A stretch of 64,000 nucleotides of DNA from an uncultured Actinomycetes bacterium (lineage in GTDB: Bacteria; Actinomycetota; UBA4738; HRBIN12). The stretch spans positions 650,140 through 714,139 of the forward strand of contig CAVTOC010000006.1 in assembly GCA_963736335.1 (NCBI GenBank). Reading direction: 5' to 3'. A model generated the notes under the pieces. It was given only the letters and a program-made list of their open reading frames with translations, was not told the origin of the DNA and searched no databases. The first letter of the stretch is position 1. Every line of letters begins with the position of its first letter. Shown here one piece after another: positions 7,323 through 51,154 of the stretch. A program made the translations under genes and the position numbers.

Positions 7323-7566
7323 GGTCGATCCCTTTCGTCGGGGCCCCTCAGGGTCTTGTGCTCGTGCGCATGTGGAGGTCGAGCGGGGTGGACGAGCCCA
7401 TGCTTCTTTGCCGTTGACACGCGTCGGAGAGATGCCGAACGATCGGACATGTGGGTGGATCCTCCCGGGGGGAAGTCGTACGGGCTGGAGCCGTCCGAGC
7501 GGAGCCCCTTCGTCTTCGTCGTCGATGGCCACCGCGGGTGACGTAGTCCACCCGAGTGGTCATCCG

Positions 7567-7589
7567 TAGTTAGGAAGGTTGAGTTTCCA
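7567..7589. promoter_or_regulatory. Possible spacer-variant of the ROK-locus operator, in the leader of the giant gene
   Basis: The minus strand reads TGGAAACTCAACCTTCCTAACTAC. It shares GGAAAC and TTCCTAACTA with the 21639-21654 site (AGGAAACTTTCCTAACTA), but the half-sites are 7 nt apart rather than 1 nt. Confidence 0.25.
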
Positions 7590-7656
7590 TCACCCGGGAC
7601 GACGACGCATCGGGCTTTGGTCGTAGGCCACAGGTCGGTGCCGAGGTGGACGCCGA

Positions 7657-7686
7657 GAAGCTCGGGGCATCGGAGCCCCGAGCTTC
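7657..7686 (-). terminator. Stem-loop downstream of the 84-aa ORF
   Basis: GAAGCTCGGGG (7657-7667) pairs perfectly with CCCCGAGCTTC (7676-7686). It lies 28 nt past the stop at 7714. There is no U-tract. Confidence 0.45.
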
Positions 7687-7713
7687 GTGGTTCGACGTCT
7701 GGTGGTTGAGCGG

Positions 7714-7968
7714 CTAGATGCGCGCCCGCCCCACGCACGTCTCACCGGTCGACGGGTTCGTCGCCTTCGCCACGAACTTGTCCACACCGGTCGAATCGCT
7801 GGGACGGCGGCGGACCGTGAACGAACCGCTCGCCCCCTGCGTCACGCGCGTGCCGGTGAAGATCCGCGAGCTGTTCTGCCTGATCTGGACGTACCAGGAC
7901 TGACCGCTCACGTTCGAGTCGACCTCGAACTCCAGCTCCAGGCTGCTGTTGTCCGGCTCGAGCTTCAT
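7714..7968 (-). CDS. Small hypothetical protein, possibly an N-terminally truncated fragment
   Basis: The 84-aa ORF MKLEPDNSSLELEFEVDSNVSGQSWYVQIRQNSSRIFTGTRVTQGASGSFTVRRRPSDSTGVDKFVAKATNPSTGETCVGRARI has a non-shadow composition. The in-frame upstream peptide ...RAQSEWK continues to a TGA with no alternative start and no signal peptide. Confidence 0.5.
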   Translation of the reverse strand: MKLEPDNSSLELEFEVDSNVSGQSWYVQIRQNSSRIFTGTRVTQGASGSFTVRRRPSDSTGVDKFVAKATNPSTGETCVGRARI

Positions 7969-9906: not shown

Positions 9907-11490
9907 TCAGGTCGACGAGCGCGCTCGCCGTCCCGTCGCGTGGATCACCTCTCGGGCCGCGCGCAGCCCCGTCTCGACGCCGCCGTTGAGATAGCCCTGG
10001 CTGTACGTGGACGTGTGCTCACCTGCGAAGTGCACGTTGCCCTGCGGGAGCCCCATGTAGCCGAAGAAGCTCGTCCACTGCCCGGGCAGGAACGCCGCGT
10101 AGGAGCCCTTCACCCACGGGTCGTCCACCCATGAGTCCAGCCACGAGCGCCCGTTGTACGAGTCGCGTATCCCGGGGAGGTACGTGTCGAGGAACGCCAG
10201 CGCATCGTCGACCACCCCCGGGGGTGCCGACGCGTGGGGCTCGTCGACCGGATAGCCGGCCCCGGTCTTCCCGCCCGAGAAGATGGTCAACAGCCCGCCG
10301 GGCCCCGGCTCCGCCAGGGCGCTGTCCCAGCTGTCGGTCTTGGGAACGTCCAGGTCGAACAGGCCGTTCCACCCGAACGTCGGGAACCGGTCCTCGAACT
10401 GCAGGAGCACCTTCGCGTTCGTGCCCATCCCGAGCTCGTCGATCGCTCGCATCCGATCGTGGTCGAACCCCGCTCCCGTCAGGTCGACGTCGCGGAGCGT
10501 GGTGAACGGCAGGCAGAGGACGACGTGGTCGGCGACCACGGGTGACGCCACGCCTCCGAAGTCGAGCTCGTACGTTCCGTCGGAGCGTTGCCGCATCGCC
10601 TCGAGCGGCGACTCGAGGTGAAGCGCGCCTGAAGGCAGCAGGTCGGCCAGCATGTTCGGGACCTGATCGTTCCCACCCCGGATGTGGTAGCGCTCGTCGG
10701 CGGGTCCACCCGGGTACGGCGTGATGTACGTGTCGAGCAGCGTGATCGCCGACGTGTCCTCGGGGTCGATGCCCCAGAACCCGGTGAGACCGATATCCAT
10801 CGACAGGCCGAGCAGCGACCCGCTCCCGCCCGGAACGTTGTCGTCCATCCACTCGCGCATCGTCATCTGGTCGAACGCTTTCGCCGCCGGTCCCGCTTGC
10901 CCCCAGCGATAGGGGCCGACCTTCTTCGCGTCACGCATGAGCCGCCGGATCACCACGTCGAAGTGCGCGTGCACCGCGTGACGATCCCGCTGTTCGCCCT
11001 CGAGCACCAGGAGACCGGTCACGTCGCTTTCGTCCGAGTAGGCCGGGAACAGGTCGTCCAGCTGGAGACCGAGCGCGGCGACGAGCCGGCGGAGCTGCAC
11101 GTGCCGCGTATCGACGAACTCCCCTCCGTGCTCGGCCACCTGGCCGTCAGCGAACGACCGAGCGGACCAGCACCGGCCCCCGACGCGGTCGCGGGACTCG
11201 TAGAGGTCGGCCGGGATGCCGTGCTGCTGCAGTTTGTAGGCACAGGACACCCCGGCGAGCCCGGCGCCCACCACGACGACGCGCGGATCGTGGGCCCCGC
11301 GGCGACGCGGACGCGCCAGCGCGGCGAGCGGCCGTGCAACGGCCAGCCCCGCTCCCAGGACGCCGGCACCCTGCAGCACCTGACGCCGGCTGAGCTGCAG
11401 GCGCTGGAGCTGGATCGCCTCGTCCAACGACAGGGGCCGATCCTCCGGAAGCGACGCGTAAACGTCGGCCAGCTCGCGCATCGCCCGCAT
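9907..11490 (-). CDS. Tat-exported flavin-containing amine oxidase family protein
   Basis: Twin-arginine signal LSRRQVLQGAGVLGAGLAVARPLAALA, followed by the dinucleotide fold VVVVGAGLAGVSCAYKLQQHGIPADLYESRDRVGGR. The Arg-rich 104-aa upstream extension in the track (to 11802) overlaps the neighbouring gene and was discarded in favour of ATG at 11490. Confidence 0.85.
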   Translation of the reverse strand: MRAMRELADVYASLPEDRPLSLDEAIQLQRLQLSRRQVLQGAGVLGAGLAVARPLAALARPRRRGAHDPRVVVVGAGLAGVSCAYKLQQHGIPADLYESRDRVGGRCWSARSFADGQVAEHGGEFVDTRHVQLRRLVAALGLQLDDLFPAYSDESDVTGLLVLEGEQRDRHAVHAHFDVVIRRLMRDAKKVGPYRWGQAGPAAKAFDQMTMREWMDDNVPGGSGSLLGLSMDIGLTGFWGIDPEDTSAITLLDTYITPYPGGPADERYHIRGGNDQVPNMLADLLPSGALHLESPLEAMRQRSDGTYELDFGGVASPVVADHVVLCLPFTTLRDVDLTGAGFDHDRMRAIDELGMGTNAKVLLQFEDRFPTFGWNGLFDLDVPKTDSWDSALAEPGPGGLLTIFSGGKTGAGYPVDEPHASAPPGVVDDALAFLDTYLPGIRDSYNGRSWLDSWVDDPWVKGSYAAFLPGQWTSFFGYMGLPQGNVHFAGEHTSTYSQGYLNGGVETGLRAAREVIHATGRRARSST

Positions 11491-34467: not shown

Positions 34468-35861
34468 GTCGACGGCCTGGTCGTCGACCGGGCGTCGGAC
34501 AGCTCGTTCAGGGATCGTTCGATGCCTCGAGCGAGCACGTCGATGTCCGGCAGCGCGTCCCAATCGGCGGTCAGTCCGAACGCCATGGTTCCGCCGAGGC
34601 TGGTGCACGCGATGGACAAGGCGCAGTTCTCGCCGAGCGGCATCGCTGGGTAGCTCGCCACCAACCGGGCACCTGCCAGGTACATGGGCACCTGCGGCGC
34701 GGGGATATTGGACACGACGAGGTTGAACCACCGGTTGCGCGACGCGAGTCGGGCGGCCATGGCGTGCAGAGCCGGCGGCGCATAGGCGCCGAGCCCGATG
34801 ATCGAGTCCGCGCTCACCGCCATCGCCGAGCTCTTCAACGCCGCGGTGGCGGCGCGCACCCGCTTCAGCCGGGTCGCCGGCTTCATCATGCCCACCGGGA
34901 TGTCCACGAACGCGGGGGCGACGCGGTTCCCCACGTCACCCTGTTCGGCCTTCGAACGAACGGACACCGGCACCATCACGCGGAGCACACGGCCGCGGGT
35001 CGACTCGCCGCGCGCATCCAGCAGGTCGTGAAGCCCGCCGCCGACCGCTGCGAGCACGATGTCGTTGATGGTCCCGCTGAGCGCACGCTTGACGCCGTGC
35101 ACGAGCTCGAACGGCGCTTCGGCCGTGGCGAATCGCCGATTGGGGCCTACCCGGACGTCGAACGGCCCCTGCGGCGGGTTGCCCATCCCGACGATGGAGC
35201 GGAGTCCGTCGAGCGTTTGACCGACAACGGCTGCGGCGTGCGCAGGCGCCTGCGCGACGCGGACCAGCGCCTCCATCGGGTGCAGCACGAGGTCCTGCAC
35301 CGCCTCGGCTGCGAGCTCCGCCGTGCTGGGGATGGGTTCGGGAACCCACGGCTCCTTGGGCGGCGGACCGAGGTCCGAGTCGGGCGACAGATCGAACAAC
35401 GCCGATGCGATCAACATCCCTGAGATCCCGTCCGCCAACGCATGATGCATCTTGAGGAGGACCGCGCTTCGACCGTGCTCGAGCCCTTCGAAGACGTAGA
35501 GCTCCCACAGCGGCTTGCTGCGATCCAGTGGGCGAGACAGGACCCGACCCACCACACGCTCCAGTTGGAGCCGGCCTCCCGGCTGGGGGATCGCCGCTCG
35601 CCGGAGGTGGAAGTCCAGGTCGAACCGATCGTCGTCGACCCAGAGCGGCCGGGTGAGACCGGCGGGCAGGCTGAGGACGCGCTGTCGCAGGCGCGGTGCG
35701 AGGTGCAGGCGCGCCGTCGCGACACGGGCGACATCCTCGTACGTGAGGGGACCGTCCTCCCGAGGCGCGAACACGGACACGCCCGCGACGTGCATGTGCA
35801 TGGCGGGGCGCTCGAGATACAGGAAGCTCGCATCGAGGCTGGAGAGGCGTTCGGGTGGCAT
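34464..35861 (-). CDS. Wax ester synthase / diacylglycerol acyltransferase (WS/DGAT)
   Basis: LSSLDASFLYLE and the catalytic motif HHALADGISG. 465 aa. Confidence 0.9.
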   Translation of the reverse strand: MPPERLSSLDASFLYLERPAMHMHVAGVSVFAPREDGPLTYEDVARVATARLHLAPRLRQRVLSLPAGLTRPLWVDDDRFDLDFHLRRAAIPQPGGRLQLERVVGRVLSRPLDRSKPLWELYVFEGLEHGRSAVLLKMHHALADGISGMLIASALFDLSPDSDLGPPPKEPWVPEPIPSTAELAAEAVQDLVLHPMEALVRVAQAPAHAAAVVGQTLDGLRSIVGMGNPPQGPFDVRVGPNRRFATAEAPFELVHGVKRALSGTINDIVLAAVGGGLHDLLDARGESTRGRVLRVMVPVSVRSKAEQGDVGNRVAPAFVDIPVGMMKPATRLKRVRAATAALKSSAMAVSADSIIGLGAYAPPALHAMAARLASRNRWFNLVVSNIPAPQVPMYLAGARLVASYPAMPLGENCALSIACTSLGGTMAFGLTADWDALPDIDVLARGIERSLNELSDARSTTRPST

Positions 35862-35899
35862 CAGAACCCCACGGTACCGAAGTGCTAGGGTCCCGGCCG

Positions 35900-37834
35900 A
35901 TGATCCGCCGACTGGCAGTGCGCCGACTGGCAGCCGTCGCGTTCCTGGTGCTGCTCATGCTCGGCCCGGCGCTCGCCGCTCGTGCCGACGACTACGACGC
36001 GGAGATCAGCGCGATCGACAACGCGTTCGACGCGGGGATCGTGCGTATCCAGCCGGGCGGATCGGTCAGTTGGTCGAACGACGGGAACAGCCCCCACACC
36101 GTCACGGCGGACGACGGTTCCTACGATTCCGGCAACCTGGATCCCGGGGCGACGTACACGAAGGAGTTCGATCAGCCGGGCGTGTACTCGTATTTCTGCA
36201 AGTACCACGGAGCGCCGGGCGTGGGCATGACCGGGATCGTTGTCGTGGGCGACGTCCAGATCCCGAGTGCGACCGGTGGTGGAGTGGGCCCGGGCCGCGA
36301 ACCGTTGCCGGGCGGGTTCGCGGCGACGGTGCGGGTGCCGGCGGACTATCCGACCGTGCAGGAAGCGGTGGATCACGCCGAACCCGGCGGCATGGTCCTG
36401 ATCGCGCCCGGCGTCTATCACGAGTCGGTGGTCGTCACGACGCCCTACCTCACGATCAGAGGTGAGGACCGAAACCGAACGATCCTCGACGGGAAGGACC
36501 GGCTCCCGAACGGCCTCCACGTGATCGAAGCCGATGGCGTGTCCATCGAGAACCTGACTGCGCGGCACTTCGTGCTGAACGGGGTGCAGTGGTCGAGTGT
36601 CTTCGGCTTCCGCGCGTCGTACGTGACCGCGTACGACAACGGCGACTACGGCATCTACGCGTTCGACTCGCAGTACGGGCAGTTCGACCACTCGTACGCC
36701 GGCGGATCGCCGGACTCCGGCTTCTACATCGGGCAGTGCGATCCCTGCCACGCGCTGATCACGGATTCGCTCGCGGAGCACAACGCCATGGGGTACTCGG
36801 GGACGAACGCCGGGGGCGACCTGGCCATCGTGAACAGCGAGTGGCGCGACAACATGGCCGGTATCGTGCCGAACACGCTCGATTCCGAGGCGAACCCTCC
36901 GCAGCGCGACGTGCTGATCGCCGGGAATTACGTGCACGACAACAACTCGACGACGGCGGACACGAAGGATCTGGAATACCCCACGTACGGCGTGGGGATC
37001 CTGATCGCCGGTGGTGTCGAGGACACGATCACGCAGAACCTGGTCGAGGACCAGGCGACGTACGGCATCGCGATCGTCCCGAACCTCGACGCGAACCTCT
37101 GGCCGACGCGCGACAACGAGGTGCGGGACAACGTGGTTCGCCGGAGCGGCCGGGCGGATCTGGCGCTCGGCGCGCCGTCGGCCGGAGGGGACTGCTTCTC
37201 GGGGAACCACCCGGCCACGAGCGTGCCGCCGCATATCGAGACGTTGTACGGATGCGAAGGGCCGTCCCTGAGCATGTTCGGAGGCGGCGACCTCGCTCCC
37301 ACGGTGAACACCGGCATCCGGTTCCTCGATGCGTTGGACGGCCGGTTCCCGCACGGGGACTGGAGGGAACAGCCGACCCCCCGGCCGCAGACGCAGATGA
37401 AGGATGCGACGACCGCGCCCCCGTTCCCCGCGGATCCATCGGGACTGCCACAGAGCTATCGGATCCGCGACCTCGCCGGTATCAGGCCGGCGCCCGGGCC
37501 GCGGGTGAGCGAGCAGGTGCTCGTGTTCGGGATCCCGCTCGCCACGTCGTGGTGGAGCCTCATCCTCGGCCTGTACGCGTACGTGCTCCCCGGGTTCCTC
37601 TACGCCGCATGGCTGACGATCGCGCTTTGGGACCTGATCCGGCAGGAGTCGGTACCGGTTTCGTTCCGAGCAAGATGGATGGCGGTGGTGATCCTGGTGC
37701 CGTTGTTGGGACCGATCCTGTACTACGTCTGGGGGCGCTCGCCGATACCGAGGCAGCTTCGGCTGATGCTCGTCGCCGGCGGCGCCCTGGTCTACGTGTT
37801 CATCGCGGTGCTGGCTGCCGTGCTCGGCGGCTGA
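35900..37834 (+). CDS. Membrane-anchored cupredoxin / right-handed beta-helix (NosD-like) protein with a C-terminal PLDc_N-type small membrane domain
   Basis: Signal MIRRLAVRRLAAVAFLVLLMLGPALAARA. Type-1 copper ligand pattern SPHTV ... YFCKYHGAPGVGM (36191-36229). Beta-helix repeats follow (GVSIENLTARH, GIYAFDSQY, GNYVHDNN, GIAIVPN). The C-terminus has WWSLILGLYAYVLPGFLYAAWLTIALWDL and RWMAVVILVPLLGPILYYVWGR. Confidence 0.75.
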   Translation: MIRRLAVRRLAAVAFLVLLMLGPALAARADDYDAEISAIDNAFDAGIVRIQPGGSVSWSNDGNSPHTVTADDGSYDSGNLDPGATYTKEFDQPGVYSYFCKYHGAPGVGMTGIVVVGDVQIPSATGGGVGPGREPLPGGFAATVRVPADYPTVQEAVDHAEPGGMVLIAPGVYHESVVVTTPYLTIRGEDRNRTILDGKDRLPNGLHVIEADGVSIENLTARHFVLNGVQWSSVFGFRASYVTAYDNGDYGIYAFDSQYGQFDHSYAGGSPDSGFYIGQCDPCHALITDSLAEHNAMGYSGTNAGGDLAIVNSEWRDNMAGIVPNTLDSEANPPQRDVLIAGNYVHDNNSTTADTKDLEYPTYGVGILIAGGVEDTITQNLVEDQATYGIAIVPNLDANLWPTRDNEVRDNVVRRSGRADLALGAPSAGGDCFSGNHPATSVPPHIETLYGCEGPSLSMFGGGDLAPTVNTGIRFLDALDGRFPHGDWREQPTPRPQTQMKDATTAPPFPADPSGLPQSYRIRDLAGIRPAPGPRVSEQVLVFGIPLATSWWSLILGLYAYVLPGFLYAAWLTIALWDLIRQESVPVSFRARWMAVVILVPLLGPILYYVWGRSPIPRQLRLMLVAGGALVYVFIAVLAAVLGG

Positions 37835-37850
37835 GCAACTCCAGAGCGCG

Positions 37851-39335
37851 CTAGATAGAGATGTCGTCCCTGATCGCGGACAGCTCGTCGGCAAGGGCCG
37901 GATCTGCGGGCATGTCCTCCGCGAAGTACCACCAGAAGACGCCACCGACGGACCAGCTGTACCCGAGGGAGGCCCGATAGATCTGGTCGAGCACGATCCG
38001 GCGAGCCCGTTCGGGGTCGTGGGCATCGCCGTACCACCACGCCCTCGACGTTGCCGGACCCCAGTAACCGAGCTCGCCGATCCCCACGCGCGCGCCGGGA
38101 AGGGCGTAGTGGAACGCTCGGAGGATCCGGTCGTACGCCAGCCCGAGGGGGGCGTCCTCGACCCAGGTCGAGAGCAGGAAGACATCGGTGTCTTGGATCG
38201 TCGACGGCTTGAGCTCATCCCGGATCCAATCGAACGTCGACCACTGCGGCGCGTCGGTGCCCATCTGCCAGTACAGCGTCACGACGACGATCTTCTCGGG
38301 ATGGCTTCCGTGCAGCCAGGTGGCGGCCTGATCGATGCGGTCGCCCATCCCGGGACCGAGCCAGCCCCCGTTGACCTCGTTACCGATCTCCCACGCGTCC
38401 ACCGCCGGCAGGGCTCTGACCGCGCGTTGGATCCGCTGAAGGTACGTCGATCCCGGGAAGGCCTTCGCGTAGAAGGAGTCGATCGGCTGCCCTAGGACCT
38501 TCAACCCCTGGCGGTGCGCCCGATGCACCGCCGGTGCGTACGCGGAGAAGTCGGTCCCGGGATCCATGACGACGCGCACCCAGCCGTATGGATCGGTCAG
38601 TCGGCCGGCAAGATCCAGGTTGGAGACGGAGTGGTCGGTCGTGTCCATGGTGACGCCGAGCCACGGTGTCATCGACGCGGGCGACTTCGCGAACTGCGTA
38701 CCGTAGTCGGCGAGCAACACGTCGTTCGCGAGGGCGAGGTGATCGAGCGCGAGGGCGCCGTACCGGCCTCTGGCCGAAGGTACCGAAGAGGCGTTCGCCG
38801 TATCGATATCCGTCGCGGCCGCGTCGTATGCCCCGTTGAACGCCGCAGACCGCACGAACGAGGGCCTGATCGCGAGCTCCTGATCGAGCATGCGCTTGGC
38901 GTCGATCGCAGCTCGATACGTGAAGTTGACGACCCCACCGCGCCTGAACCCTGCTCCGCCGTTGTCCAGGATCAGCAAGGAATAGCCCCGGGTCGTCGGC
39001 CAGTTGACCGCCAGCGCGACGGGCCGGTCGGGCAGGGTGAAGGAGAGATGACCGGAGCCGTCGGTGTAGAGAGGGTGAGCCTGGACGTCGTACAGGAAGG
39101 TGGGATCGATGAGCGCGTCGTTGCGCCAGCCGGCGTTCCCGTTCGACATCCGCGACCTCGCGCCCGCGGCCGAGATCTCGTGCCCCCGGCGATCGAAGAA
39201 TCGCATCTGCACCGTTCCACCGGACCGGGCCGGTGCGGCACCGATGTGAGGACCTGCGACCGCCCCCAGGAAGACGCTGATGATGACCATGTTGCAGCCC
39301 ACCGCCGCGATCCCGGGCATGAACCTCCGACGCAT
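37851..39335 (-). CDS. Secreted glycoside-hydrolase-like (clan GH-A TIM-barrel type) protein, family unassigned
   Basis: Start at ATG 39335 gives MRRRFMPGIAAVGCNMVIISVFLGAVAGPHIGAA. WEIGNEVNGGW (about 38368-38392) and VGIGELGYW (about 38061-38085) resemble the acid/base and nucleophile strands of clan GH-A enzymes. The Arg-rich 192-aa track extension was rejected. Confidence 0.6.
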   Translation of the reverse strand: MRRRFMPGIAAVGCNMVIISVFLGAVAGPHIGAAPARSGGTVQMRFFDRRGHEISAAGARSRMSNGNAGWRNDALIDPTFLYDVQAHPLYTDGSGHLSFTLPDRPVALAVNWPTTRGYSLLILDNGGAGFRRGGVVNFTYRAAIDAKRMLDQELAIRPSFVRSAAFNGAYDAAATDIDTANASSVPSARGRYGALALDHLALANDVLLADYGTQFAKSPASMTPWLGVTMDTTDHSVSNLDLAGRLTDPYGWVRVVMDPGTDFSAYAPAVHRAHRQGLKVLGQPIDSFYAKAFPGSTYLQRIQRAVRALPAVDAWEIGNEVNGGWLGPGMGDRIDQAATWLHGSHPEKIVVVTLYWQMGTDAPQWSTFDWIRDELKPSTIQDTDVFLLSTWVEDAPLGLAYDRILRAFHYALPGARVGIGELGYWGPATSRAWWYGDAHDPERARRIVLDQIYRASLGYSWSVGGVFWWYFAEDMPADPALADELSAIRDDISI

Positions 39336-43009: not shown

Positions 43010-46000
43010 CTACTCCGCGCCGACCAGGTCCTCGACCAGGTCGTCCTGAGGAGCGAACTGGTCGCGGATGCGGCGCGACCACCGATAGATCACGAGCGTC
43101 AGCAGCAGGAAGATCACACCGGACACGACCAGGATCGCGCGCGTCCGCGTGGGGTCGTCCTCGATCCACACGAACGACAGGATCAACGCGGGGATGATGA
43201 AGCCCAGGTTGTAGGCGATGTCGAACAACGCGAACGCGCGGCCGCGGAAGTCATCGGGCATCGACTGCTGCATGATCGTGTCGGCGGAGATCTTGCCGAG
43301 GAAGAACGTGAAGAACCCCACGAACAGCAGGGCCGCGAATCCCGGGAGCGAGACCTGCGAGCCGAACACGACCGTCGCGATACCGAGCGCCAACATCGCT
43401 CCCATCAGTAGGCGGATCGGCGGGACGCGGTCCTTCCATTTCTGGGCGAGGACCAATCCGATCGCGCCGCCCAAGAACCCGCCCCCGCCGACGAGCGCCA
43501 GCCCCAGGTTGTCGGCGCCGCTCTGCACCAGGTTCTTCGCGTACAGCCCGAACGTGAAGAGGCAGAACCCCCAGAACTGGTAACGCAACATCTGGAACGA
43601 GGACAACCCGAGCGCCGCGGGGGGACGTGAGGCGACCTCCTTGAGCCCGGCGACGATGCTGGAGACGACCCGCTTCGCCTCCTGGGCGAACGTCGAATCG
43701 TGTGGCTGCATCTCCATGCGCTCGAGGCGGTTCGCGACCAGCGCCGCGACGACGAGCACACCGGCGCCCATGACCACGACCATCCACGACGGGAGCGCCG
43801 CGGCGGCACCGAACGCGAAACCGATGCCGATCACCTGGAAGAGCGCCCCGCCCGCCTGGGAGAGACCGTTGCCTTGTAGCAGGTCCTTGCCCGACAGCAC
43901 GTCGGGGATCGCCGCCGACTTAACGGCGAGCGCGACCCGCGTGCATCCCTGGATGAACAACAGCCCGACGATCAGGGCGACGGTCGCGCCGACGTTCCCC
44001 TCGGACGTGTCCTTTCCGAGCGGCAACATCACGGCGACCGCGACGATGGAGACCACGACCGCGGTGATGATGTTGGACAGGCTGAGGATCCGCCGGCGTT
44101 CGAACCGGTCGATGCCGACGCCGATGAACGGACTCACGAGCGTGTAGGGGACGTAGAGGGCCAGCACGACCTTCAACAGGTACTGCGCCGACGGCACGAC
44201 CGTGACGTCGAACCCCTTCTCGCCGCCGAACGCGATCGATTTCGCGAACGCGCCCTGGATGACCCCTTGGCCCGCCTGGACCAGGAACTGCACCCCGACC
44301 AACGTGGCGTACGCGCGGTTGGAGAACACCGAGAACATCGTGTTGAAGAAGCCACCGAACGACCCCAACACACGGTTCAAGCGTGTGTTGCCGAACCGCA
44401 GACCCAGGGCGAAGAGGGTGGCGAGGGCGACCGCGGCCCAGCCCTTGACGGTCGTGAGCGGCCCGCGCCAGACCGTGAGCAGCACGATGCCCGACAGCAA
44501 GGTGAGGGCGATCGACATCGCCGGGATGAGGCCCATCTTGCTGGGCGTGTCGTTCAGCTCGAACCAGTCCGAGGCGATCAGCCCCGGGAGGACGGCGAGG
44601 AAGAACAGACCGACGATCACGCGGAGCGTGTGCAGCGGATCGCCGAGCGGGCCGGGATGGTCGTCCAGATGCGCCTTCTCGGCGGCGGCGGCTGCGTTCG
44701 CGGCGGCCACGGTCTCGGACGACGGCGTGTACAGCCCGTCGCCGGTGATCACGCTGACATCGGGGCCGATCGACACGCCCTGCGCGAGCGCGGCTTCTTG
44801 ATCGAGACCACCACCGTAGAACTGGCCGACCAGGATCACGATCGGGTCTGCGTCGACGGCGCGCTCCCTCGCCTGGACCTCCTTGAAGTAGTCGCTCGAC
44901 GTCTGGGTGTATCCGGCGTCTTTGCCCACGGTCGGCTGCCCCGCGAGGTAGTTCTCGAGCGTCCCGAAATACGTGGCCGAGTACTGCGCGTCCTCGCCCG
45001 GCAACCCGGTGCGCATGATGTTCGTGTACGTCTTGGCCCACCCGTACGCCGTGGCGGTGTCGCCGAAGTTGGCGATCAAGATGTTCGGACGCACGCCCGC
45101 ATCGGCGACGGCCTCGTGGACGGCCGCCAGCGAGACGCGAGCGTCCTCGTTGATCCACTGTGCCTTCTCGCTGGCCCACCGATGGGCCAACCCGTCGTAG
45201 AAGACCCACCCGAGCGCTCCGACCACGGCGACGCTCGCGAGCACACCGGCGGCGCGCTTGGTCCCGTCCAACCGGAGGAACCAGCGGATCGCGACGAACG
45301 CTCCCAGCGCCGTGAGCGGCATGACGGCCGCCGTCGCGTTCATGAACCGGTAGTAGGGAACGACGGCGGACGTCAGGAACGTGAACGAACCGAGGAACGG
45401 GAGCATCCACCAGATCGAGACCATGTCGAACGTGTTGGCCGGCTTGCGCTCGCGCCGGGCGAGCAGGATCGTCGAGACGATCGCGACGACGATCAACGGT
45501 CCGATCACGAGCGGTTGCAGCGACCCGACCCACTGCCCCAGCCGGGCCAGGAAGAACGCCTTCGTGTACGGAGGCGGGAGCGCGGCGTCGGAAAGGCTGG
45601 CCGAGGGCCCCCAGATCCCGACCACCCACATCGCCAGGCCGGCGATCATGCCGAACCCGCAGGACATCAGCATCGGCCCGTCGGAGCGGAGCGCGGCGCC
45701 GAACGAGAACCGGCTGGTCAGGAAGTGGAATCCGAACACGGCGAGCAGGACGACGCCGAAGATGACGCAGGTGGTGGGGTGCGTGAACGCCGCCGCCACC
45801 GAGATCAGGAACACGGCGGATCGCGCGCCCCACGACGTTCGAGATGCCCCGAGGAAGGGGAGCAACGCGCAGAGCAGGAACAGCATCAGGGTGTTGTCCA
45901 GGTAACCGACGTACGGGATGGTCAGGAACAGCGCGGCCGCCACCAGCATGCAGAGCAGCACGATCAGCGGATCCCTCCGGCTTCGGTACGCCCCCGCGCC

Positions 46001-46381
46001 GAGCGCCAGGCCGGCGAGCACGGGGATGCCGATCATCAGGAACGCGCTGAAGCTGTACTGGTCGATGCCCGCGACCCGCTGGAGCAGCGCGCCCGCGAGG
46101 GGCGTGGTGATCCGGTATCCCCCGCTGAACGTGGAACCGGGACCCCACTCGCGCACGACCGATCCCGGAGACGACTCCAGGATGACGTTCGCGCGCCAGG
46201 TGTACCAGGCTGGGTCCCGCGTCGGCGCCGTGATGGTCGGGTGGAGCAGGAACTGCCAGCCAAGTGCGAGCAGGAGCAGGAGGGCCACCAGCGCGATGAC
46301 CCACCAATGACCGAGGCGGCTCTCGGTCGGTGGCGGAGTATCGGTGGGGGCCTGAGCTCGCTCGGTATCGGTCAGCGCCAT
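43010..46381 (-). CDS. 1,123-aa polytopic membrane fusion: N-terminal GT-C-like multi-TM module with a roughly 180-aa extracytoplasmic domain, plus a C-terminal MFS transporter
   Basis: N-terminal half: about 11 hydrophobic helices, first loop TRDPAWYTWRA, soluble segment YDGLAHRWASEKAQWINEDARV...AEKAHLDDHPG. C-terminal half: about 12 helices with MFS motif A PFIGVGIDRFERRRIL (about 44088-44130). It is one uninterrupted frame. Confidence 0.8.
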   Translation of the reverse strand: MALTDTERAQAPTDTPPPTESRLGHWWVIALVALLLLLALGWQFLLHPTITAPTRDPAWYTWRANVILESSPGSVVREWGPGSTFSGGYRITTPLAGALLQRVAGIDQYSFSAFLMIGIPVLAGLALGAGAYRSRRDPLIVLLCMLVAAALFLTIPYVGYLDNTLMLFLLCALLPFLGASRTSWGARSAVFLISVAAAFTHPTTCVIFGVVLLAVFGFHFLTSRFSFGAALRSDGPMLMSCGFGMIAGLAMWVVGIWGPSASLSDAALPPPYTKAFFLARLGQWVGSLQPLVIGPLIVVAIVSTILLARRERKPANTFDMVSIWWMLPFLGSFTFLTSAVVPYYRFMNATAAVMPLTALGAFVAIRWFLRLDGTKRAAGVLASVAVVGALGWVFYDGLAHRWASEKAQWINEDARVSLAAVHEAVADAGVRPNILIANFGDTATAYGWAKTYTNIMRTGLPGEDAQYSATYFGTLENYLAGQPTVGKDAGYTQTSSDYFKEVQARERAVDADPIVILVGQFYGGGLDQEAALAQGVSIGPDVSVITGDGLYTPSSETVAAANAAAAAEKAHLDDHPGPLGDPLHTLRVIVGLFFLAVLPGLIASDWFELNDTPSKMGLIPAMSIALTLLSGIVLLTVWRGPLTTVKGWAAVALATLFALGLRFGNTRLNRVLGSFGGFFNTMFSVFSNRAYATLVGVQFLVQAGQGVIQGAFAKSIAFGGEKGFDVTVVPSAQYLLKVVLALYVPYTLVSPFIGVGIDRFERRRILSLSNIITAVVVSIVAVAVMLPLGKDTSEGNVGATVALIVGLLFIQGCTRVALAVKSAAIPDVLSGKDLLQGNGLSQAGGALFQVIGIGFAFGAAAALPSWMVVVMGAGVLVVAALVANRLERMEMQPHDSTFAQEAKRVVSSIVAGLKEVASRPPAALGLSSFQMLRYQFWGFCLFTFGLYAKNLVQSGADNLGLALVGGGGFLGGAIGLVLAQKWKDRVPPIRLLMGAMLALGIATVVFGSQVSLPGFAALLFVGFFTFFLGKISADTIMQQSMPDDFRGRAFALFDIAYNLGFIIPALILSFVWIEDDPTRTRAILVVSGVIFLLLTLVIYRWSRRIRDQFAPQDDLVEDLVGAE

Positions 46382-46406
46382 GCGGGCGACATCCTACCGG
46401 GAGGGT

Positions 46407-48062
46407 CTAACCGGCGGCTTGAGCTTCCGGAAGACACGGAAGGTGCTGCATCAGGTCCGACGGGAACGCGGCCTCGAACACCGGATCGTTCGCGGTCGCG
46501 GGGTCGACGGTTTGTGTGGGCGATGCCGTCTGCGCCTGGGTGAGCGTCATGACGTAGCGCGCGACGTCGGCCACCGTGAAGCCGTTCTGCTCGAGCTCCG
46601 GAACGTTCAGGAACACCTGCGACGGCTGCACGAGCTCCACGACCGGGGTGTTGTCGCCGTCCTTGTCGAAGTGCGCGTTGATGCCCGCCTGGATCGGGGG
46701 CGTCTGGATCTGGAACCCCCCGCTGACGGCCGGATCGGGCATCGCGCCGTGGTCCGCGGTGAGCACCATCGCCCAGTTGCCCTTCCCGACCTGCTTGTTG
46801 AGGAAGCCGACGAACCGCTTGAGCGCGAGGTCCTGCGCCACGACGGCGTCGCGCATCTCGAGCGAGTTCATCGTCCAGACGTGGCTGACGTAGTCGATCT
46901 CCTTGAAGTTGAGGTACAGGAGGTCGGGCATGTCGTCCTTGCCGAACCCTTCGTGCTGGATCACCGTCTCGACCACACGCTCCTGGTACGGCGTGCGCGC
47001 CGGCGTATCGAACCCCTTCAGCAGCTGATCGATGGAGTTGCCGCGCCACAGGCCGTCGAGCTTGCCGTCGGCCTGATCGACACGGCGGACGTCTTGCGCG
47101 AACCCCGGCACGTCGTTCGCGTAGCTCGCGAGCTTGTAGTACGCGGCGTCCCTCGGGGGGAGGTTCCAGGTGAACCCCTCGTCCGTGAGCGTCGTCCCGC
47201 CGACCACAGAACGGGTCAACGCGATGTCGCGGTCGCCTCCGGTGAAGAACGAGCCGTGCCCGAGCATGCCGAAGTGGATGTCGACGGTGCCGACGATGCC
47301 GACGACCGGCTTGTTGTGCATCGCACGGTCGTAGATGTCGGCGAGCGTCGGCTCGATCAGGAACGCCGGCCCCTCGTTCCACGGGCTGGTCAGGCGATCG
47401 CCGACGATCAGGTGGTGCCCGGTGATCCCGTTGTGGTCGGGGAAGTCGCCGGTGCCGATGATGGCGTGATCCTGCGCGGTGCTGGTCGGCGACGAACCGA
47501 CGCTCGCGTCCGAGAACCATGTGCCCTTGGGGATCAGGGAGTCCAGGTACGGATGCGCATCCGGCCATGCGTTGAGCACGTTCATGCCGCCCGCGTCCCA
47601 CACCAGGGTGACCAACAGCTTCGGAGGGTTGGCGGTGGGCAGGACCGCCTCGTTCATCGGCTGGCCGTCGATCGGGTGGAACCCGTCGAAGTGCAGGATC
47701 TTCGCAGCGGTGGGCGCGATGCCCGCCAGGGTCACGGGGCGCTTCACGGTCTTGCCGGCGGGCACGAACCCCGGCCCGTACCAGAGCATCGGCACGTCCT
47801 CCACGTAGTCCCAGGGACCCACGTGCGGGAATCCCGAGCCGACGAAGTTCGGTTCCTGTGGGATGTACGAGAGTTGCGCGCCGCGATCGGGCCGCCAGCC
47901 ACGCCACGTCCGCAGCAGGAACTCGTGCGGGACCGAGCACGCCAGGTTCACCAGGTCCTGGTCGCCCGTCTGGGCACGAGCAGACAGGCGCGGCACCGTA
48001 ACGGCGGACGTCACGAGCAGGGCGAAGACGAGCGTGAGCAGGACGAAACGCCTCGGAGTCAT
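46407..48062 (-). CDS. Alkaline-phosphatase-superfamily enzyme (nucleotide pyrophosphatase/phosphodiesterase-like), N-terminally anchored or secreted
   Basis: ATG at 48062 gives MTPRRFVLLTLVFALLVTSAVTV. Motifs: LVWDAGG, SSPTSTAQDHAIIGTGDFPDHNGITGH, EIDYVSH, LTADHG. Its stop lies 25 nt before the fusion-gene ATG. Confidence 0.8.
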   Translation of the reverse strand: MTPRRFVLLTLVFALLVTSAVTVPRLSARAQTGDQDLVNLACSVPHEFLLRTWRGWRPDRGAQLSYIPQEPNFVGSGFPHVGPWDYVEDVPMLWYGPGFVPAGKTVKRPVTLAGIAPTAAKILHFDGFHPIDGQPMNEAVLPTANPPKLLVTLVWDAGGMNVLNAWPDAHPYLDSLIPKGTWFSDASVGSSPTSTAQDHAIIGTGDFPDHNGITGHHLIVGDRLTSPWNEGPAFLIEPTLADIYDRAMHNKPVVGIVGTVDIHFGMLGHGSFFTGGDRDIALTRSVVGGTTLTDEGFTWNLPPRDAAYYKLASYANDVPGFAQDVRRVDQADGKLDGLWRGNSIDQLLKGFDTPARTPYQERVVETVIQHEGFGKDDMPDLLYLNFKEIDYVSHVWTMNSLEMRDAVVAQDLALKRFVGFLNKQVGKGNWAMVLTADHGAMPDPAVSGGFQIQTPPIQAGINAHFDKDGDNTPVVELVQPSQVFLNVPELEQNGFTVADVARYVMTLTQAQTASPTQTVDPATANDPVFEAAFPSDLMQHLPCLPEAQAAG

Positions 48063-48122: not shown

Positions 48123-49431
48123 GTGGGATCCGGGCGGCGCCTCACCGTGCTGGTCGTCGCGTTGGCGCTGGTCGGCGCGCCTGCGGTCGCCCTCACGGCG
48201 TTCTGCGTGGGCAAGAGCTGTGCCGACGAGGACCAGGCGTCGGCGGCGGTTCCCTTCTGCGCCCTTCCCGGCGACCTGCGGGCGCAGATCGAGGCCGGGT
48301 TCCGGCAGGGTCATTCACCGGACGTCATGGCGGCGACGAGCGGGGCCGACATCGTGGGGGGCACGACCGGGAGCTCGGACGCCGCTTGGCCCCGTGCACC
48401 GCTCACGGCGCTGCAGAACAGCGTCCCCATCGTGTGGTTCGGTCACGGCGTCAAGGCAAGCGAGATCCCGCCCGGCACGGGCCTGGACAGCATCGCCCCG
48501 ACCGTCGCCCGCCTGATCGGATACGACCGGCCGCATCCGGAGATCCGCAGCAGGGGCACCATCGGCGACGGCCGTCCGTCCGAACGCCGATCCTCGGCTC
48601 GTGGTCGAGATCGTCTGGAAGGGTGTCGGGAGCGAGGCGTTCTCGCATGGCTTCTCGGCGTGGACGGAACGACTGGCGTCGGGAGGCGACGTCGCGAGCA
48701 CCCTGCGGGCAACGACCGGCTCGCTGCCGGTCGAACCGGCGACGACGCTCACCACGATCGGCACCGGCGGCCTGCCGTTCCAGCACGGCATCACGGGCAG
48801 CCTCATCCGTGACAGGGATGGCGCCGCGATGCCGGCATGGAGCGCCTCCGTACCGACCTCCATCATCGCGACGCTGCCCGACGATTGGGATCACGCTCAG
48901 AACCAGCGGCCTCGGATCGGACTGATCGCACCGGATCCGACCGACCGAGGTCTCATCGGCGGCACGTGGTACCTGGATCACGATCGCGACGACCTCGTGT
49001 TCGGACGGCACGATCCCGTGCGCGCCGTCGGCCGGTTGCTCCGGTCCGGATACGGCGTCGACGGCACGACCGACATCCTTGGCGTCGTGCTCGCCGGGTC
49101 GGACGCGGACGCCCAGACGCGCGCGATCGTCGGAGCCGTTCGCAACGCCGTGCCCGACGCGACGTTCGTCGTCACCGCCTCCGGCCGGACCGGTCGGTCC
49201 GATGGAAGCGGAGCGGCGGTCGGTCGCAGGGTCGACGGAGCGATCGGATCGCCGGTCGTCGCCGCGGTCGTGCCCGGAGGTCTCTTCCTGGATCAGGCCG
49301 TGATGGCGGCGAACGACATCACGTCCGACGACGTGGTCCGCGCGATGGACGCGATGACCGCGCCCGACGGAACGCCGCTGTTCGCCGATGCGTATCCCGG
49401 ATTCGCGATCTCGTTCTCGAGGTACTGCTGA
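48123..49431 (+). pseudogene. Degenerate NPP/AlkP-family paralogue with one frameshift near 48552
   Basis: GTG at 48123 gives VGSGRRLTVLVVALALVGAPAVA. ...GYDRPHPEIRS continues in another frame as GAPSATAVRPNADPRLVVEIVWKGVGSEAF...TTLTTIGTGGLPFQHGITGS...VVTASGRTG. Removing one A from AGCAGGGGC restores the frame. Metal-ligand motifs are replaced (VWDAGG to VWKGVG; TADHG to TASGR). Confidence 0.65.
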
Positions 49432-50450
49432 TGGCCGTCGACGTCGCGCGCCCGGACGTCTCTCCGCCGCAGACGGGGTCGTCGCGCCGAACCGCGCTGG
49501 CGGTGCTCGGGGGACTCGCCCTGATCGCGGTGGCCGTTCGCGTGGCCGACCCGGAGCGGATCGCGTGGCTGCAGAACTTCCTGATCGTCTTCGGGTCGCT
49601 GCTCGTCGAGGCGACGCCGTTCATCCTGTTGGGCGCGTTCGTGTCCGCGGCGATCGAGGTCTTCGTGCCGACGTCGACGTTCGCGCATCTGGCCCGTTTG
49701 CCGCGTCCACTGCAGCTCCCCGCAGCGGCGCTCGCGGGGATCGCGTTCCCCGTGTGCGAATGCGGGTCCGTCCCGGTCGCGCGCCGGCTGGCCAGCAAGG
49801 GCCTGGCGCCGTCGGCCGCCATCACGTTCATGCTGGCCGCGCCCATCCTCAATCCGGTCGTCGTGGCCTCCACGTTCGTCGCCTATCGCGGGCGCGACTC
49901 GCTCTGGGTCATGGTGCTCGGCCGGATGGCCCTCGGGTTCCTGGTCGCCGTGGCCGTGGGGTGGGTGATCGGGGCGACCCGGAAGGAAGACATCTTGAAG
50001 GCGCGGCCCGGTGACGAGGACGTCGATGTCGAGGCCGGTCCGGACGAATCGCGATGGGCGCGGTTCACCTCGCACCTGAGCGGGGACTTCTTCTTCATGG
50101 GCCGCTTCCTCGTCATGGGAGCGGCCATCGCGGCCGCCGTGCAGACGTTCGTCCCGCAGACGATCGTGACGAGGCTGGCGAACCTGCCGGTCCTGTCGCT
50201 GCTCGCGATGATGGCGCTGGCGTTCTTGATGTCGCTCTGCTCGGAGTCGGACGCGTTCGTGGCGGCGTCGTTCACGTCGTTCGGGCCGGCGGCGCAGCTC
50301 GCGTTCCTGGTCTCGGGTCCGATGATCGACCTCAAGCTCGCCGCGCTCTACGCGGGCACGTACAGCAAGGGCTTCGTTCGCACCGTGATCGTGACCGTCG
50401 TGGCCGTCACGTTGGTCGGCACGCTCTGGATCCAGGTGGTGTTCGGATGA
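49431..50450 (+). CDS. COG0701/DUF318-type permease
   Basis: The ATG overlaps the upstream stop (TGATG). 339 aa, about 8 helices, FPVCECGSVPVARRL motif. Confidence 0.8.
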   Translation: MAVDVARPDVSPPQTGSSRRTALAVLGGLALIAVAVRVADPERIAWLQNFLIVFGSLLVEATPFILLGAFVSAAIEVFVPTSTFAHLARLPRPLQLPAAALAGIAFPVCECGSVPVARRLASKGLAPSAAITFMLAAPILNPVVVASTFVAYRGRDSLWVMVLGRMALGFLVAVAVGWVIGATRKEDILKARPGDEDVDVEAGPDESRWARFTSHLSGDFFFMGRFLVMGAAIAAAVQTFVPQTIVTRLANLPVLSLLAMMALAFLMSLCSESDAFVAASFTSFGPAAQLAFLVSGPMIDLKLAALYAGTYSKGFVRTVIVTVVAVTLVGTLWIQVVFG

Positions 50451-51154
50451 AGCTGCGCTGGAGCCCTTCGCGGGTCGCGACCGGCACCGTGCTGGCCGCG
50501 TGGGCTGCGTTCTTCTGGTTCCTGCTCGTGAGCGGGCGCTGGTCGCTCTACCTGTCGACGCGAACGTTCTGGGTGGTGCCGACCGGAGCCGTGCTGATGA
50601 CGATCGCGGCCGTGGGCCGGCTCGCGACGGCTCGCGTCATCCGACCGGAGCCGCTCCCGAGCGCCACGTCGTGGACGCTCGGCGTGGTCGCCCTCCCCGT
50701 GGTGCTGCTCATGGTCCTGCCTCCGGCCACCCTCTCCGGCTACGCGCTGGGGCGCCGAAGCTCGTTCGTCGGATCGGGCGTCGTGGTGTCGACGTCGGAC
50801 ATCGCTTCGGGAACGATCTCGTTCATCGACGTGGCGGCGGCGCAATCATCCAAGACCGGCATGGCGGCGCTGCGCTCACGGGCGGGAGAGCAGGTCACCC
50901 TGGAGGGGTTCGTGTGGCATGAGGACGGGGCCTCGGCCGACGAGATCCTGCTGACGCGGTACGTCGTCACGTGTTGTGTGGCGGACGCGACGAGCGCCCA
51001 GGTCCGCGTCGTGAACGTCCCTCCCGGCCGGTTCAAGCCGGACGACTGGGTGAGCGTCACCGGACGCATCTATCCCCTCGGGAGCGAGATCCTGGTCGAT
51101 GCGAGCGACGTCCACTCGATCGCCCAGCCGGAGCGGCCCTACCTCACGCCGTAG
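50447..51154 (+). CDS. TIGR03943/DUF1980-family membrane protein (usual partner of COG0701 permeases)
   Basis: ATGA start/stop coupling. Two N-terminal TM segments. The C-terminal domain carries LTRYVVTCCVADA. Confidence 0.75.
   Translation: MKLRWSPSRVATGTVLAAWAAFFWFLLVSGRWSLYLSTRTFWVVPTGAVLMTIAAVGRLATARVIRPEPLPSATSWTLGVVALPVVLLMVLPPATLSGYALGRRSSFVGSGVVVSTSDIASGTISFIDVAAAQSSKTGMAALRSRAGEQVTLEGFVWHEDGASADEILLTRYVVTCCVADATSAQVRVVNVPPGRFKPDDWVSVTGRIYPLGSEILVDASDVHSIAQPERPYLTP

Follow-up and report, generated by a model that had tools for sequence, protein, structure and literature searches.

A GT-C-fold module fused to a major facilitator superfamily transporter and accompanied by an exported NPP-type enzyme: a candidate envelope-modification system in uncultured Actinomycetota

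What might a single membrane protein do that joins a glycosyltransferase-like module to a complete transporter? The question is raised by a 64-kb stretch of DNA with a G+C content of ~68% (hereafter the window) from an uncultured Actinomycetes bacterium (contig CAVTOC010000006.1), in which one gene encodes a 1,123-residue protein composed of an N-terminal module with the fold of the C-type glycosyltransferases (GT-C) and a C-terminal transporter of the major facilitator superfamily (MFS). Just upstream lies the gene for an exported enzyme of the alkaline phosphatase superfamily, of the nucleotide pyrophosphatase/phosphodiesterase (NPP) type (Table 1). An initial annotation, made from the letters of the DNA, had proposed that these genes form a self-contained system for decorating or remodelling a cell-envelope polymer or lipid. 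Drawing on structure prediction, profile searches and the comparison of related loci, we consider it moderately probable that the fusion protein is a two-module enzyme–transporter that works on the outside of the cytoplasmic membrane, where its substrate would be a lipid-linked glycoconjugate of the envelope, with the NPP enzyme as its partner. The components belong to known superfamilies. What is new is a sequence-orphan GT-C family in uncultured Actinomycetota with three transmembrane (TM) helices after its soluble domain, the repeated occurrence of this family in one chain or as a pair with a dedicated MFS transporter, and its association with NPPs that appear to be circularly permuted.

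The initial annotation described the two modules as normally separate and allowed that their union might result from a missed stop or a frameshift. The open reading frame (ORF) is intact; it starts at its first ATG, four codons past an in-frame stop, and has a G+C content at third codon positions (GC3) of 0.92. A search with residues 1–690 returned 474 protein clusters, and 111 of the 120 listed are 1,100–1,200 residues long, most of them with an MFS_1 domain; the GT-C family has no other name in public records than “MFS transporter” or “hypothetical protein”. When one genome was scanned for each GTDB species, relatives turned up in 247 genomes, the best 80 of which were examined as loci. Both halves are colinear in 77 of these 80, and the labels of the 80 read uncultured Actinomycetota, Actinomycetes or bacterium, with the single exception of a metagenome-assembled genome (MAG) labelled Planctomycetaceae. 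The fusion, the distribution of which the initial annotation had left to be established, is thus kept in 247 species-level genomes, nearly all of them, among the best 80, from uncultured Actinomycetota. Frameshift-like breaks do occur in neighbouring genes of the window (48204–49431) and in its nearest relative, and could be taken to favour the merging of two adjacent genes by a missed stop or frameshift. That reading is refuted, and we leave it next to no probability: the uninterrupted ORF is colinear with 1,100–1,200-residue homologs from many independent assemblies and sources, the linker helix between the modules is conserved in its own right, and the order MFS–NPP–GT-C in unfused relatives (see below) rules out stop read-through. 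We found no described GT-C::MFS fusion in the literature, which is not proof of absence.

Separately, the nearest relative (locus L001, CAVSFP010000004.1), at 96% identity, has an NPP match only at 6947–7726 and an MFS match only at 10132–10857, fragments that suggest frameshift errors of that assembly; several other loci from MFD-series MAGs have multi-frame breaks resembling those of L001.

What, then, is the N-terminal module? Its AlphaFold2 (AF2) model, built from 61 sequences, has a predicted local distance difference test score (pLDDT) of 85.9 and a predicted template modelling score (pTM) of 0.87. Where the initial annotation had counted about 11 TM helices, the model gives 14, 11 before the soluble domain and three after it: TM1 is followed by a 64-residue loop with short helices, ten further TM helices, the soluble domain and the last three helices (residues 582–663). 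The extracytoplasmic domain of roughly 180 residues was foreseen correctly; it is modelled with five strands and four long helices at a pLDDT mostly above 80, and it is acidic (24 Asp/Glu against 10 Lys/Arg). In a Foldseek search of the Protein Data Bank (PDB), ranks 1–12 are all GT-C enzymes (PglB, AglB, ArnT, STT3A/B, AftA, DPY19 and EmbB), with ALG3 at rank 14. The GT-C matches cover eight families with probabilities of 0.94–1.0, E-values of 1e-4 to 6e-2 and template modelling scores (TM-scores) of 0.35–0.50, and the non-GT-C folds in the same search do not exceed a probability of 0.21. The best E-values are those of the oligosaccharyltransferases PglB, AglB and STT3, and the highest target-normalised TM-score is that of ArnT (0.50, against 0.39 for PglB). 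The structural comparison thus bears out the GT-C likeness that the initial annotation had read from the sequence.

By sequence, the module stands by itself. Residues 1–690 have no Pfam match even at E ≤ 1 and none in NCBIfam, and neither the single sequence nor a 32-sequence profile of the module gave a usable match to PDB sequences. The module reaches the cut-off of none of the named GT-C families compared (PMT/PMT_2/ArnT, STT3, GT87, Emb/Aft, YfhO and DUF6541). Membership of the stand-alone homologs in DUF6541 was considered and rejected, the match amounting to 20 bits against a cut-off of 29, in two homologs and confined to the last three TM helices. That the N-terminal half might be an MFS-associated domain of known function, which the initial annotation had named as a possible refutation, is therefore not what was found: it belongs to no sequence family, and its model matches GT-C enzymes only. 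As modelled, the module is a GT-C-fold protein of a new, sequence-orphan family.

Conservation was read from two alignments, one of 61 fused homologs (A1) and one of 32 fused and stand-alone sequences that are 27–51% identical (A2). The first-loop RDPAWY motif picked out by the initial annotation is borne out by A1 (Table 1), and in A2 D56, W62, R90 and D162 are invariant and Y60, R63, H201, P202 and R345 at least 90% conserved. By the positive-inside rule, the first loop (residues 47–110), the soluble domain and the conserved loop and helix-end residues would all lie outside the cell. Such a pairing of a first-loop Asp with another acid on the outer side is known from ArnT and PglB. The soluble domain has an invariant Y446-G447-W448 in A1 and no WWDYG-type motif. 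The module shares with the GT-C(A) enzymes ArnT (GT83), PglB/AglB/STT3 (GT66), AftA (GT85), DPY19 and EmbA/B/C (GT53) the combination of a TM core and an outer alpha/beta fold, a long loop after TM1 on the outer side, which contains short helices and an Asp that never varies, and another such Asp where TM4 reaches the outer face. It differs from them in sequence, where no relationship to these enzymes or to the Pfam GT-C families could be detected, in the position of its soluble domain, which is internal and followed by three TM helices whereas theirs is C-terminal, and in its association with an MFS transporter, by fusion or as a pair.

The C-terminal module is a complete MFS transporter. Pfam MFS_1 matches at residues 731–1063 with 74.7 bits against a cut-off of 33.4 (E = 8e-21), and the model has 12 helices (6+6), with a cytoplasmic helix linking TM6 and TM7. 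The motif A that the initial annotation had called canonical is in place; a Glu replaces its usual second Gly (G754-VGI-D758-R759-FE-R762-R763-R), and D758, R759, R762 and R763 are invariant. At the sequence level no solved MFS transporter in the PDB matches this half at E ≤ 0.01, and a whole-length match to the DHA3 drug:H+ antiporter model TIGR00900 (76.2 bits) falls under its cut-off of 319.6. Foldseek, run on the full-length model, gives only generic MFS matches, with target-normalised TM-scores of 0.69–0.78 for ferroportin, MdfA and MCT1 within an overall range of 0.5–0.78 that includes VMAT and, lower, Spns2 and AmpG. The same 12-TM fold is found in the MFS lipid transporters LtaA, LplT, MFSD2A, Spns2 and Rv1410, and Spns1 and Spns2 are among the structural matches, but the fused MFS is structurally no closer to these lipid transporters than to ferroportin, MdfA and MCT1. 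LtaA works alongside LtaS, an enzyme of the alkaline phosphatase superfamily, and the coupling of the fused transporter to envelope enzymes resembles that arrangement.

Between the two modules runs an amphipathic helix in which F686 is invariant and F678, F679, F683, S687 and N688 are at least 90% conserved. The stand-alone GT-C proteins stop just short of this linker, and alignments of stand-alone MFS proteins start at about residue 685. The AF2 model of the full-length fusion has a pLDDT of 81.8 and a pTM of 0.79; for a chain divided 61%/39% between two modules, such a pTM would imply that their relative placement is confidently predicted, being above what we would expect of modules positioned without regard to each other.

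Are the two modules partners, or merely neighbours that happened to be joined? An exhaustive HMMER search found stand-alone homologs of the N-terminal module, 650–740 residues long and 30–37% identical, that span residues ~20–665 of the fusion; their relatives are all recorded as “hypothetical protein” from uncultured Actinomycetota. Four of six stand-alone GT-C loci have, upstream of the GT-C gene and on its strand, an NPP gene and directly beyond it an MFS gene. At a fifth locus the MFS gene is 4.8 kb upstream on the opposite strand, and at the sixth an NPP gene is present and no MFS gene was seen within 7-kb flanks. The gene order in four of the five loci of the main stand-alone clade is ArsP_1, DUF1980, NPP, MFS (424–440 residues), NPP and GT-C-like, usually followed 3' of the GT-C-like gene by Wzy_C, Wzx-type Polysacc_synt and sulfotransferase genes. 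Along their full length, the separate MFS proteins of two loci share 36–41% identity with the fused MFS domain, and divergence between window and unfused loci is similar for all three components (36–41% identity for MFS, 34% for the GT-C halves and 35% for the NPPs). The modules are thus normally separate, as the initial annotation had it, in the sense that in sister lineages GT-C-like and MFS proteins of these same families are encoded by separate genes of one neighbourhood. Since the unfused order is MFS–NPP–GT-C, stop read-through could not have produced the architecture of the window.

A second fused clade, made up of P0162 and some 70 clusters, also exists. In its GT-C half, identity reaches 54% with a complete stand-alone protein and only 32% with the half from the window, and its MFS half is 41–46% identical to unfused MFS proteins and 37% to that of the window. 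Because this second clade sits nearer to the stand-alone and unfused proteins, fusion or fission must have occurred at least twice. Taken together, these sequence comparisons indicate that the GT-C-like and MFS modules are partners, not chance neighbours.

The third component is the NPP enzyme. Pfam Phosphodiest (PF01663) matches it with 73.5 bits against a cut-off of 23, and the PafA structures 5tj3 and 5too match at E = 7e-15, with T195 aligned to the PafA nucleophile T79. The intact metal and nucleophile set on which the initial annotation had remarked is confirmed: the motifs VWDAGG, PTST, DYVSH and TADHG are all present, and 58 NPP homologs show conservation of at least 97% for H80, D156, T195, H199, D390, H394, D437 and H438. 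Export is suggested by a signal-like N-terminus with an Arg-Arg pair, MTPRRFVLLTLVFALLVTSAVTVPRLSARA; the NPP proteins have a signal sequence and no membrane domain of their own. The enzyme shares with PafA and the NPPs (PF01663; PDB 5tj3) the P-T-x-T-A-x-x-H nucleophile motif, the D..H and DH motifs, the last His ligand and its exported state. It scores 100.6 bits with the PafA equivalog model NF042991, far under the cut-off of 650, and, unlike PafA, it belongs to a family typically found beside a GT-C-like gene.

It also differs from PafA in the order of its parts. NPP residues 43–139, which include H80, align to PafA 435–532, the C-terminal His-ligand segment of PafA, whereas residues 146–216 align to PafA 17–89 and residues 362–534 to PafA 266–437. 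The Pfam Phosphodiest match ends at profile position 283 of 342, and the NPP copies of other clades align over the same span as that of the window. Because the C-terminal His-ligand segment of PafA aligns to the N-terminus of the NPP, the enzyme appears from its alignments to be circularly permuted relative to PafA and to canonical NPPs.

How firmly is the NPP tied to the fusion? Its stop codon lies 25 nt ahead of the ATG of the fusion gene on the same strand, as the initial annotation had stated, and the spacer contains a GGTAGGA upstream of that ATG; from this spacing we infer that the two genes may be co-transcribed, a point on which the initial annotation had made its proposal depend. No significant signal came from scans for promoters and terminators or from folding the 154-nt spacer 3' of the fusion gene (z = -0.84). 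Among the 70 window-clade loci with at least 3 kb of upstream sequence, 51 have an NPP gene upstream on the same strand, in 44 of them no more than 300 nt away. In three other clades, ~30–35% identical, every locus examined has an NPP gene directly 5' of the GT-C gene, at distances between a 4-nt overlap and 137 nt (at most 24 nt in all but one locus), and each of these loci has 2–5 NPP copies. Linkage in these other clades is stronger evidence than the count within the window clade.

The combination can be set against systems in which the parts of such a pathway are known. Three-component systems are composed of a polyprenyl-phosphate-sugar synthase, a flippase of varying family and a GT-C enzyme, the flippase being of the GtrA, SMR-type ArnE/F or MATE family (PMC11127046); examples are GtrA/GtrB/GtrC, CsbB/GtcA/YfhO, ArnC/ArnEF/ArnT and PPPRS/MATE/GT136 (PMC11127046; PMC8035078). 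As annotated in E. coli, arnT is directly followed by the flippase genes arnE and arnF. The window locus resembles these systems in the genetic coupling of a GT-C transferase to a transporter thought to deliver a lipid-linked donor. It differs from them in that the transporter is an MFS protein and covalently fused, in that no donor-synthase gene is found nearby (in the scanned window genes and the flanks of the other-clade loci), and in that one or more secreted NPP-type enzymes recur as an extra component.

By analogy with characterised GT-C enzymes, the GT-C module may take a sugar or sugar-like group from a polyprenyl-phosphate-linked donor and pass it to an acceptor outside the membrane by way of the invariant outer-face acids D56 and D162. 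The fused MFS would be its dedicated partner and would most likely move the lipid-linked donor, or else the spent carrier or acceptor lipid, in a role like that of GtrA, ArnE/F or MATE in three-component periplasmic glycosylation. The target of the secreted NPP could then be a phosphoester or pyrophosphate in that substrate, in the carrier or in the product. A bolder form of this proposal, which we put forward tentatively and would sooner doubt than believe, makes the MFS a flippase for the polyprenyl-phosphate-linked donor or the spent polyprenyl phosphate, with flipping and transfer channelled within one polypeptide and the permuted NPPs docked on it, where they would trim a phospho group of donor or product or transfer one; if true, this would be the first natural flippase–transferase fusion. 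On the whole, the envelope-modification system of the initial annotation is supported as a candidate, none of the refutation tests that were run having refuted it. What the analysis shows is the fold, the pattern of topology, the invariant residues, the fusion and the conserved association of the three families; glycosyl rather than phospho transfer, the lipid carrier, the cargo and direction of the MFS and the substrate of the NPP are putative.

Several observations weigh against the enzyme–transporter reading. The likeness of the N-terminal module to GT-C enzymes lies at the level of the fold, with TM-scores of 0.35–0.50, and sequence and profile comparisons are not significant; the family profile compared with E. 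coli ArnT by hhalign gave a probability of 1.4%, and the pairing of GYLD162 with ArnT VLD135 in that same non-significant alignment is a lead only. The MFS half stays below the DHA3 cut-off and also matches, weakly and in part, the organophosphate:Pi antiporter model TIGR00881 (33 bits, E = 2e-8), and the closest MFS structures (ferroportin, MdfA, MCT1, AmpG and Spns2) do not discriminate and give no clue to a substrate. No GT2/UbiA-type polyprenyl-phosphate-sugar synthase was found in the scanned window genes or in the 7–8-kb flanks in which the gene content of the other-clade loci (L081–L091) was read; such a gene might lie in another part of the genome. In 16 loci whose upstream sequence extends for 7 kb or more, there is no adjacent NPP, the ArsP_1/DUF1980 block being gone as well, and among the nine of these that were inspected several have metal-type ABC-3 transporter genes directly upstream. 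Finally, the window-clade neighbourhood is wholly syntenic, including its AlaX and EamA genes, and NPP adjacency inside this clade is therefore weak evidence when taken alone.

Three other functions were also weighed. The best Foldseek E-values, those of PglB, AglB and STT3, would fit a ligase or oligosaccharyltransferase in which the GT-C module uses a polyprenyl-pyrophosphate-linked glycan, the NPP turns polyprenyl pyrophosphate into polyprenyl phosphate and the MFS flips the latter back. The exported NPP with its complete catalytic set suits such a role, NPP-family (PF01663) enzymes being hydrolases of pyrophosphate and phosphodiester bonds; the missing polyprenyl-phosphate-sugar synthase would be expected if a pyrophosphate-linked donor were made elsewhere; and an unfused clade has Wzy_C and Wzx-type genes, which deal with polyprenyl-pyrophosphate-linked units, directly after its GT-C gene. 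We nevertheless consider this reading unlikely, since the highest target-normalised TM-score belongs to ArnT, which uses a monophosphate donor, the soluble domain has its invariant Y446-G447-W448 in place of a WWDYG-type motif, no Wzx or Wzy_C gene lies within 8 kb in 80 window-clade loci, and the known polyprenyl-pyrophosphate phosphatases are, to our knowledge, of the BacA or PAP2 families and not NPPs. A different weight is put on the NPPs if they are themselves the catalysts, acting through a phospho-Thr intermediate to add phospho-substituents to a surface polymer or lipid, shift them or take them off, as do LtaS, EptA, OpgB and the eukaryotic GPI ethanolamine-phosphate transferases, with the GT-C-fold protein as the lipid-binding platform in the membrane, a part that in those enzymes is played by a TM domain of their own, and the MFS supplying or removing the lipid.

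An NPP gene directly 5' of the GT-C gene, in 2–5 copies per locus, is indeed the most constant trait across the clades; the NPPs have a signal sequence and no membrane domain; sulfatases and sulfotransferases, with their related ester chemistry, recur in these loci; and PF01663-type domains joined to polytopic domains are lipid-dependent phosphotransferases of the PIG-N/MCD4 type. We nonetheless give phospho-group transfer little credence, because the GT-C module has invariant acids of its own (D56 and D162) and conserved Arg residues (R90 and R345) that would be unexpected in a passive platform, the nearest solved relative of the NPP, PafA, is a hydrolase, and we know of no characterised GT-C-fold protein that acts as a mere scaffold. 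The relationship to PafA leads in turn to phosphate scavenging or nutrient uptake, in which the NPPs would free phosphate or organophosphates from environmental or wall polymers, the MFS would import them and the GT-C-like domain would be an accessory or sensor: PafA, PhoK and PhoY, to which the NPP is closest among solved structures and NCBIfam models, are phosphatases that scavenge phosphate, “sugar phosphate permease” is the name of the fusion protein in one source, its C-terminal half weakly matches TIGR00881, many NPP copies together with sulfatases suggest an ester-hydrolysis regulon, and metal-uptake ABC-3 genes are nearby. This too seems improbable: the whole-length MFS match is to an exporter-type DHA3 model (76 bits), that to TIGR00881 being partial; the other-clade neighbours belong to glycan assembly (Wzx, Wzy_C, GT4 and a GDP-sugar dehydratase); and a 660-residue GT-C-fold module with invariant catalytic-type residues, tied to the MFS through ~70% divergence, would be left unexplained. 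Of these readings, the glycoconjugate-modifying enzyme–transporter with an NPP partner is the one that we retain.

Further genes surround the fusion and NPP genes. On the opposite strand, upstream of the NPP gene, lies a divergent NPP-like gene that has lost a conserved His from its nucleophile region; about 40 related loci keep it as one unbroken frame of ~410 aligned residues, and its split into two frames in the window makes it either a pseudogene or the result of an assembly indel error. A separate remnant pseudogene at 48553–48990(+) was considered and rejected, this segment being part of the same conserved gene, frameshifted in this assembly. The NPP-like gene and ArsP_1 are translationally coupled (TGATG, 49429–49433), as are ArsP_1 and DUF1980 (ATGA overlap at 50447), and ArsP_1/DUF1980 genes are close to the NPP, GT-C and MFS genes in seven of eight other-clade loci; our guess is that they supply metal to the exported bimetal enzymes. 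The literature held nothing useful on DUF1980. Metal-uptake ABC-3 genes also lie near the fusion locus in the window.

Table 1. Positions in the 64-kb window of the fusion gene, its parts and neighbouring genes
Feature	Position	Strand	Remarks
Single gene, GT-C-fold module + MFS transporter	43010..46381	-	1,123 aa; stop codon 43010-43012
GT-C-fold module, aa 1-663	44393..46381	-	11 TM helices, extracytoplasmic alpha/beta domain, 3 TM helices
First outer-loop motif A52-PTRDPAWYTWR-63 with candidate catalytic D56	46193..46228	-	Invariant in 61 fused homologs
D162 (in YVGYLD), outer end of TM4	45896..45898	-	Second invariant acid (A1, A2)
Extracytoplasmic alpha/beta domain, aa 403-581, 179 aa	44639..45175	-	AF2 secondary structure
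Amphipathic linker helix, aa 664-688, cytoplasmic side	44318..44392	-	Helix 665-687 in model
MFS transporter module, aa 689-1123	43013..44317	-	Pfam MFS_1, 12 TM helices aa 689-1104
MFS motif A GVGIDRFERRR, aa 754-764	44090-44122	-	Between TM2 and TM3
Exported NPP/PafA-like alkaline-phosphatase-superfamily enzyme, 551 aa	46407..48062	-	Pfam Phosphodiest
Divergent NPP-like gene	48204..49431	+	Split in two frames near 48540-48590 (tblastn, 425-/450-aa L089/L090 homologs)
ArsP_1 permease	49431-50450	+	Pfam
DUF1980 protein	50447-51154	+	Pfam

In the other clades the glycan-assembly neighbours are Wzy_C, Wzx-type Polysacc_synt, sulfotransferases, sulfatases, two GT4 glycosyltransferases and a GDP-mannose-dehydratase-type epimerase, none of which is found within 8 kb in the 80 loci of the window clade. 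The two loci of the second fused clade (L089, 3303–16715, and L090, 3261–16947) have five NPP-family genes around the GT-C::MFS gene, one of which overlaps its start by 4 nt, and hold the two GT4 genes and the epimerase gene together with a small DUF6504 gene. A stand-alone GT-C homolog of 765 residues (P0462) itself has a DUF6504 match. In L086 (9034–12453), Wzy_C and Wzx-type Polysacc_synt are called as one 1,139-residue product directly 3' of the stand-alone GT-C gene, which would be another transferase–flippase fusion in the same neighbourhood; the two genes are separate in L084, L085 and L087.

Other genes of the window were set aside. Two genes that follow the fusion downstream, for an alpha/beta hydrolase and for EamA, were weighed as possible components; they occur in 62 and 60 of the 80 window-clade loci and, because they are absent from all other clades, are taken to reflect synteny by relatedness. 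A 777-residue ORF at 35885–38218(-), used as a synteny marker, is probably not a gene and instead the antisense of a plus-strand gene at 35747–37831, since that overlapping ORF shows the codon bias of a gene here and is matched in Pfam by cupredoxin, beta-helix/NosD and PLDc_N. At the edge of the window (1–7559, minus strand) an ORF of more than 2,519 codons with a GC3 of 0.86 runs off the window start.

What the locus means rests on the place of GT-C enzymes in envelope biology. They build or decorate the majority of the important envelope glycoconjugates, namely N-glycans, lipid A modifications, arabinogalactan, lipoarabinomannan and, by glycosylation, teichoic acids, and the arrival of their donors at the outer leaflet is poorly understood, the proposed flippases having mostly been assigned by gene context. 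An MFS fused to the transferase in two clades, and two genes upstream of it in four of six stand-alone loci, is Rosetta-stone evidence for a partner transporter. With transferase and transporter in one chain, the pair can be expressed and purified as one protein, which makes coupled flipping and transfer directly testable. The NPP family enters as an unexpected third partner of the GT-C/MFS pair, and the whole suggests that uncultured Actinomycetota widespread in soil have an uncharacterised surface polymer, which may carry sulfate or phosphate.

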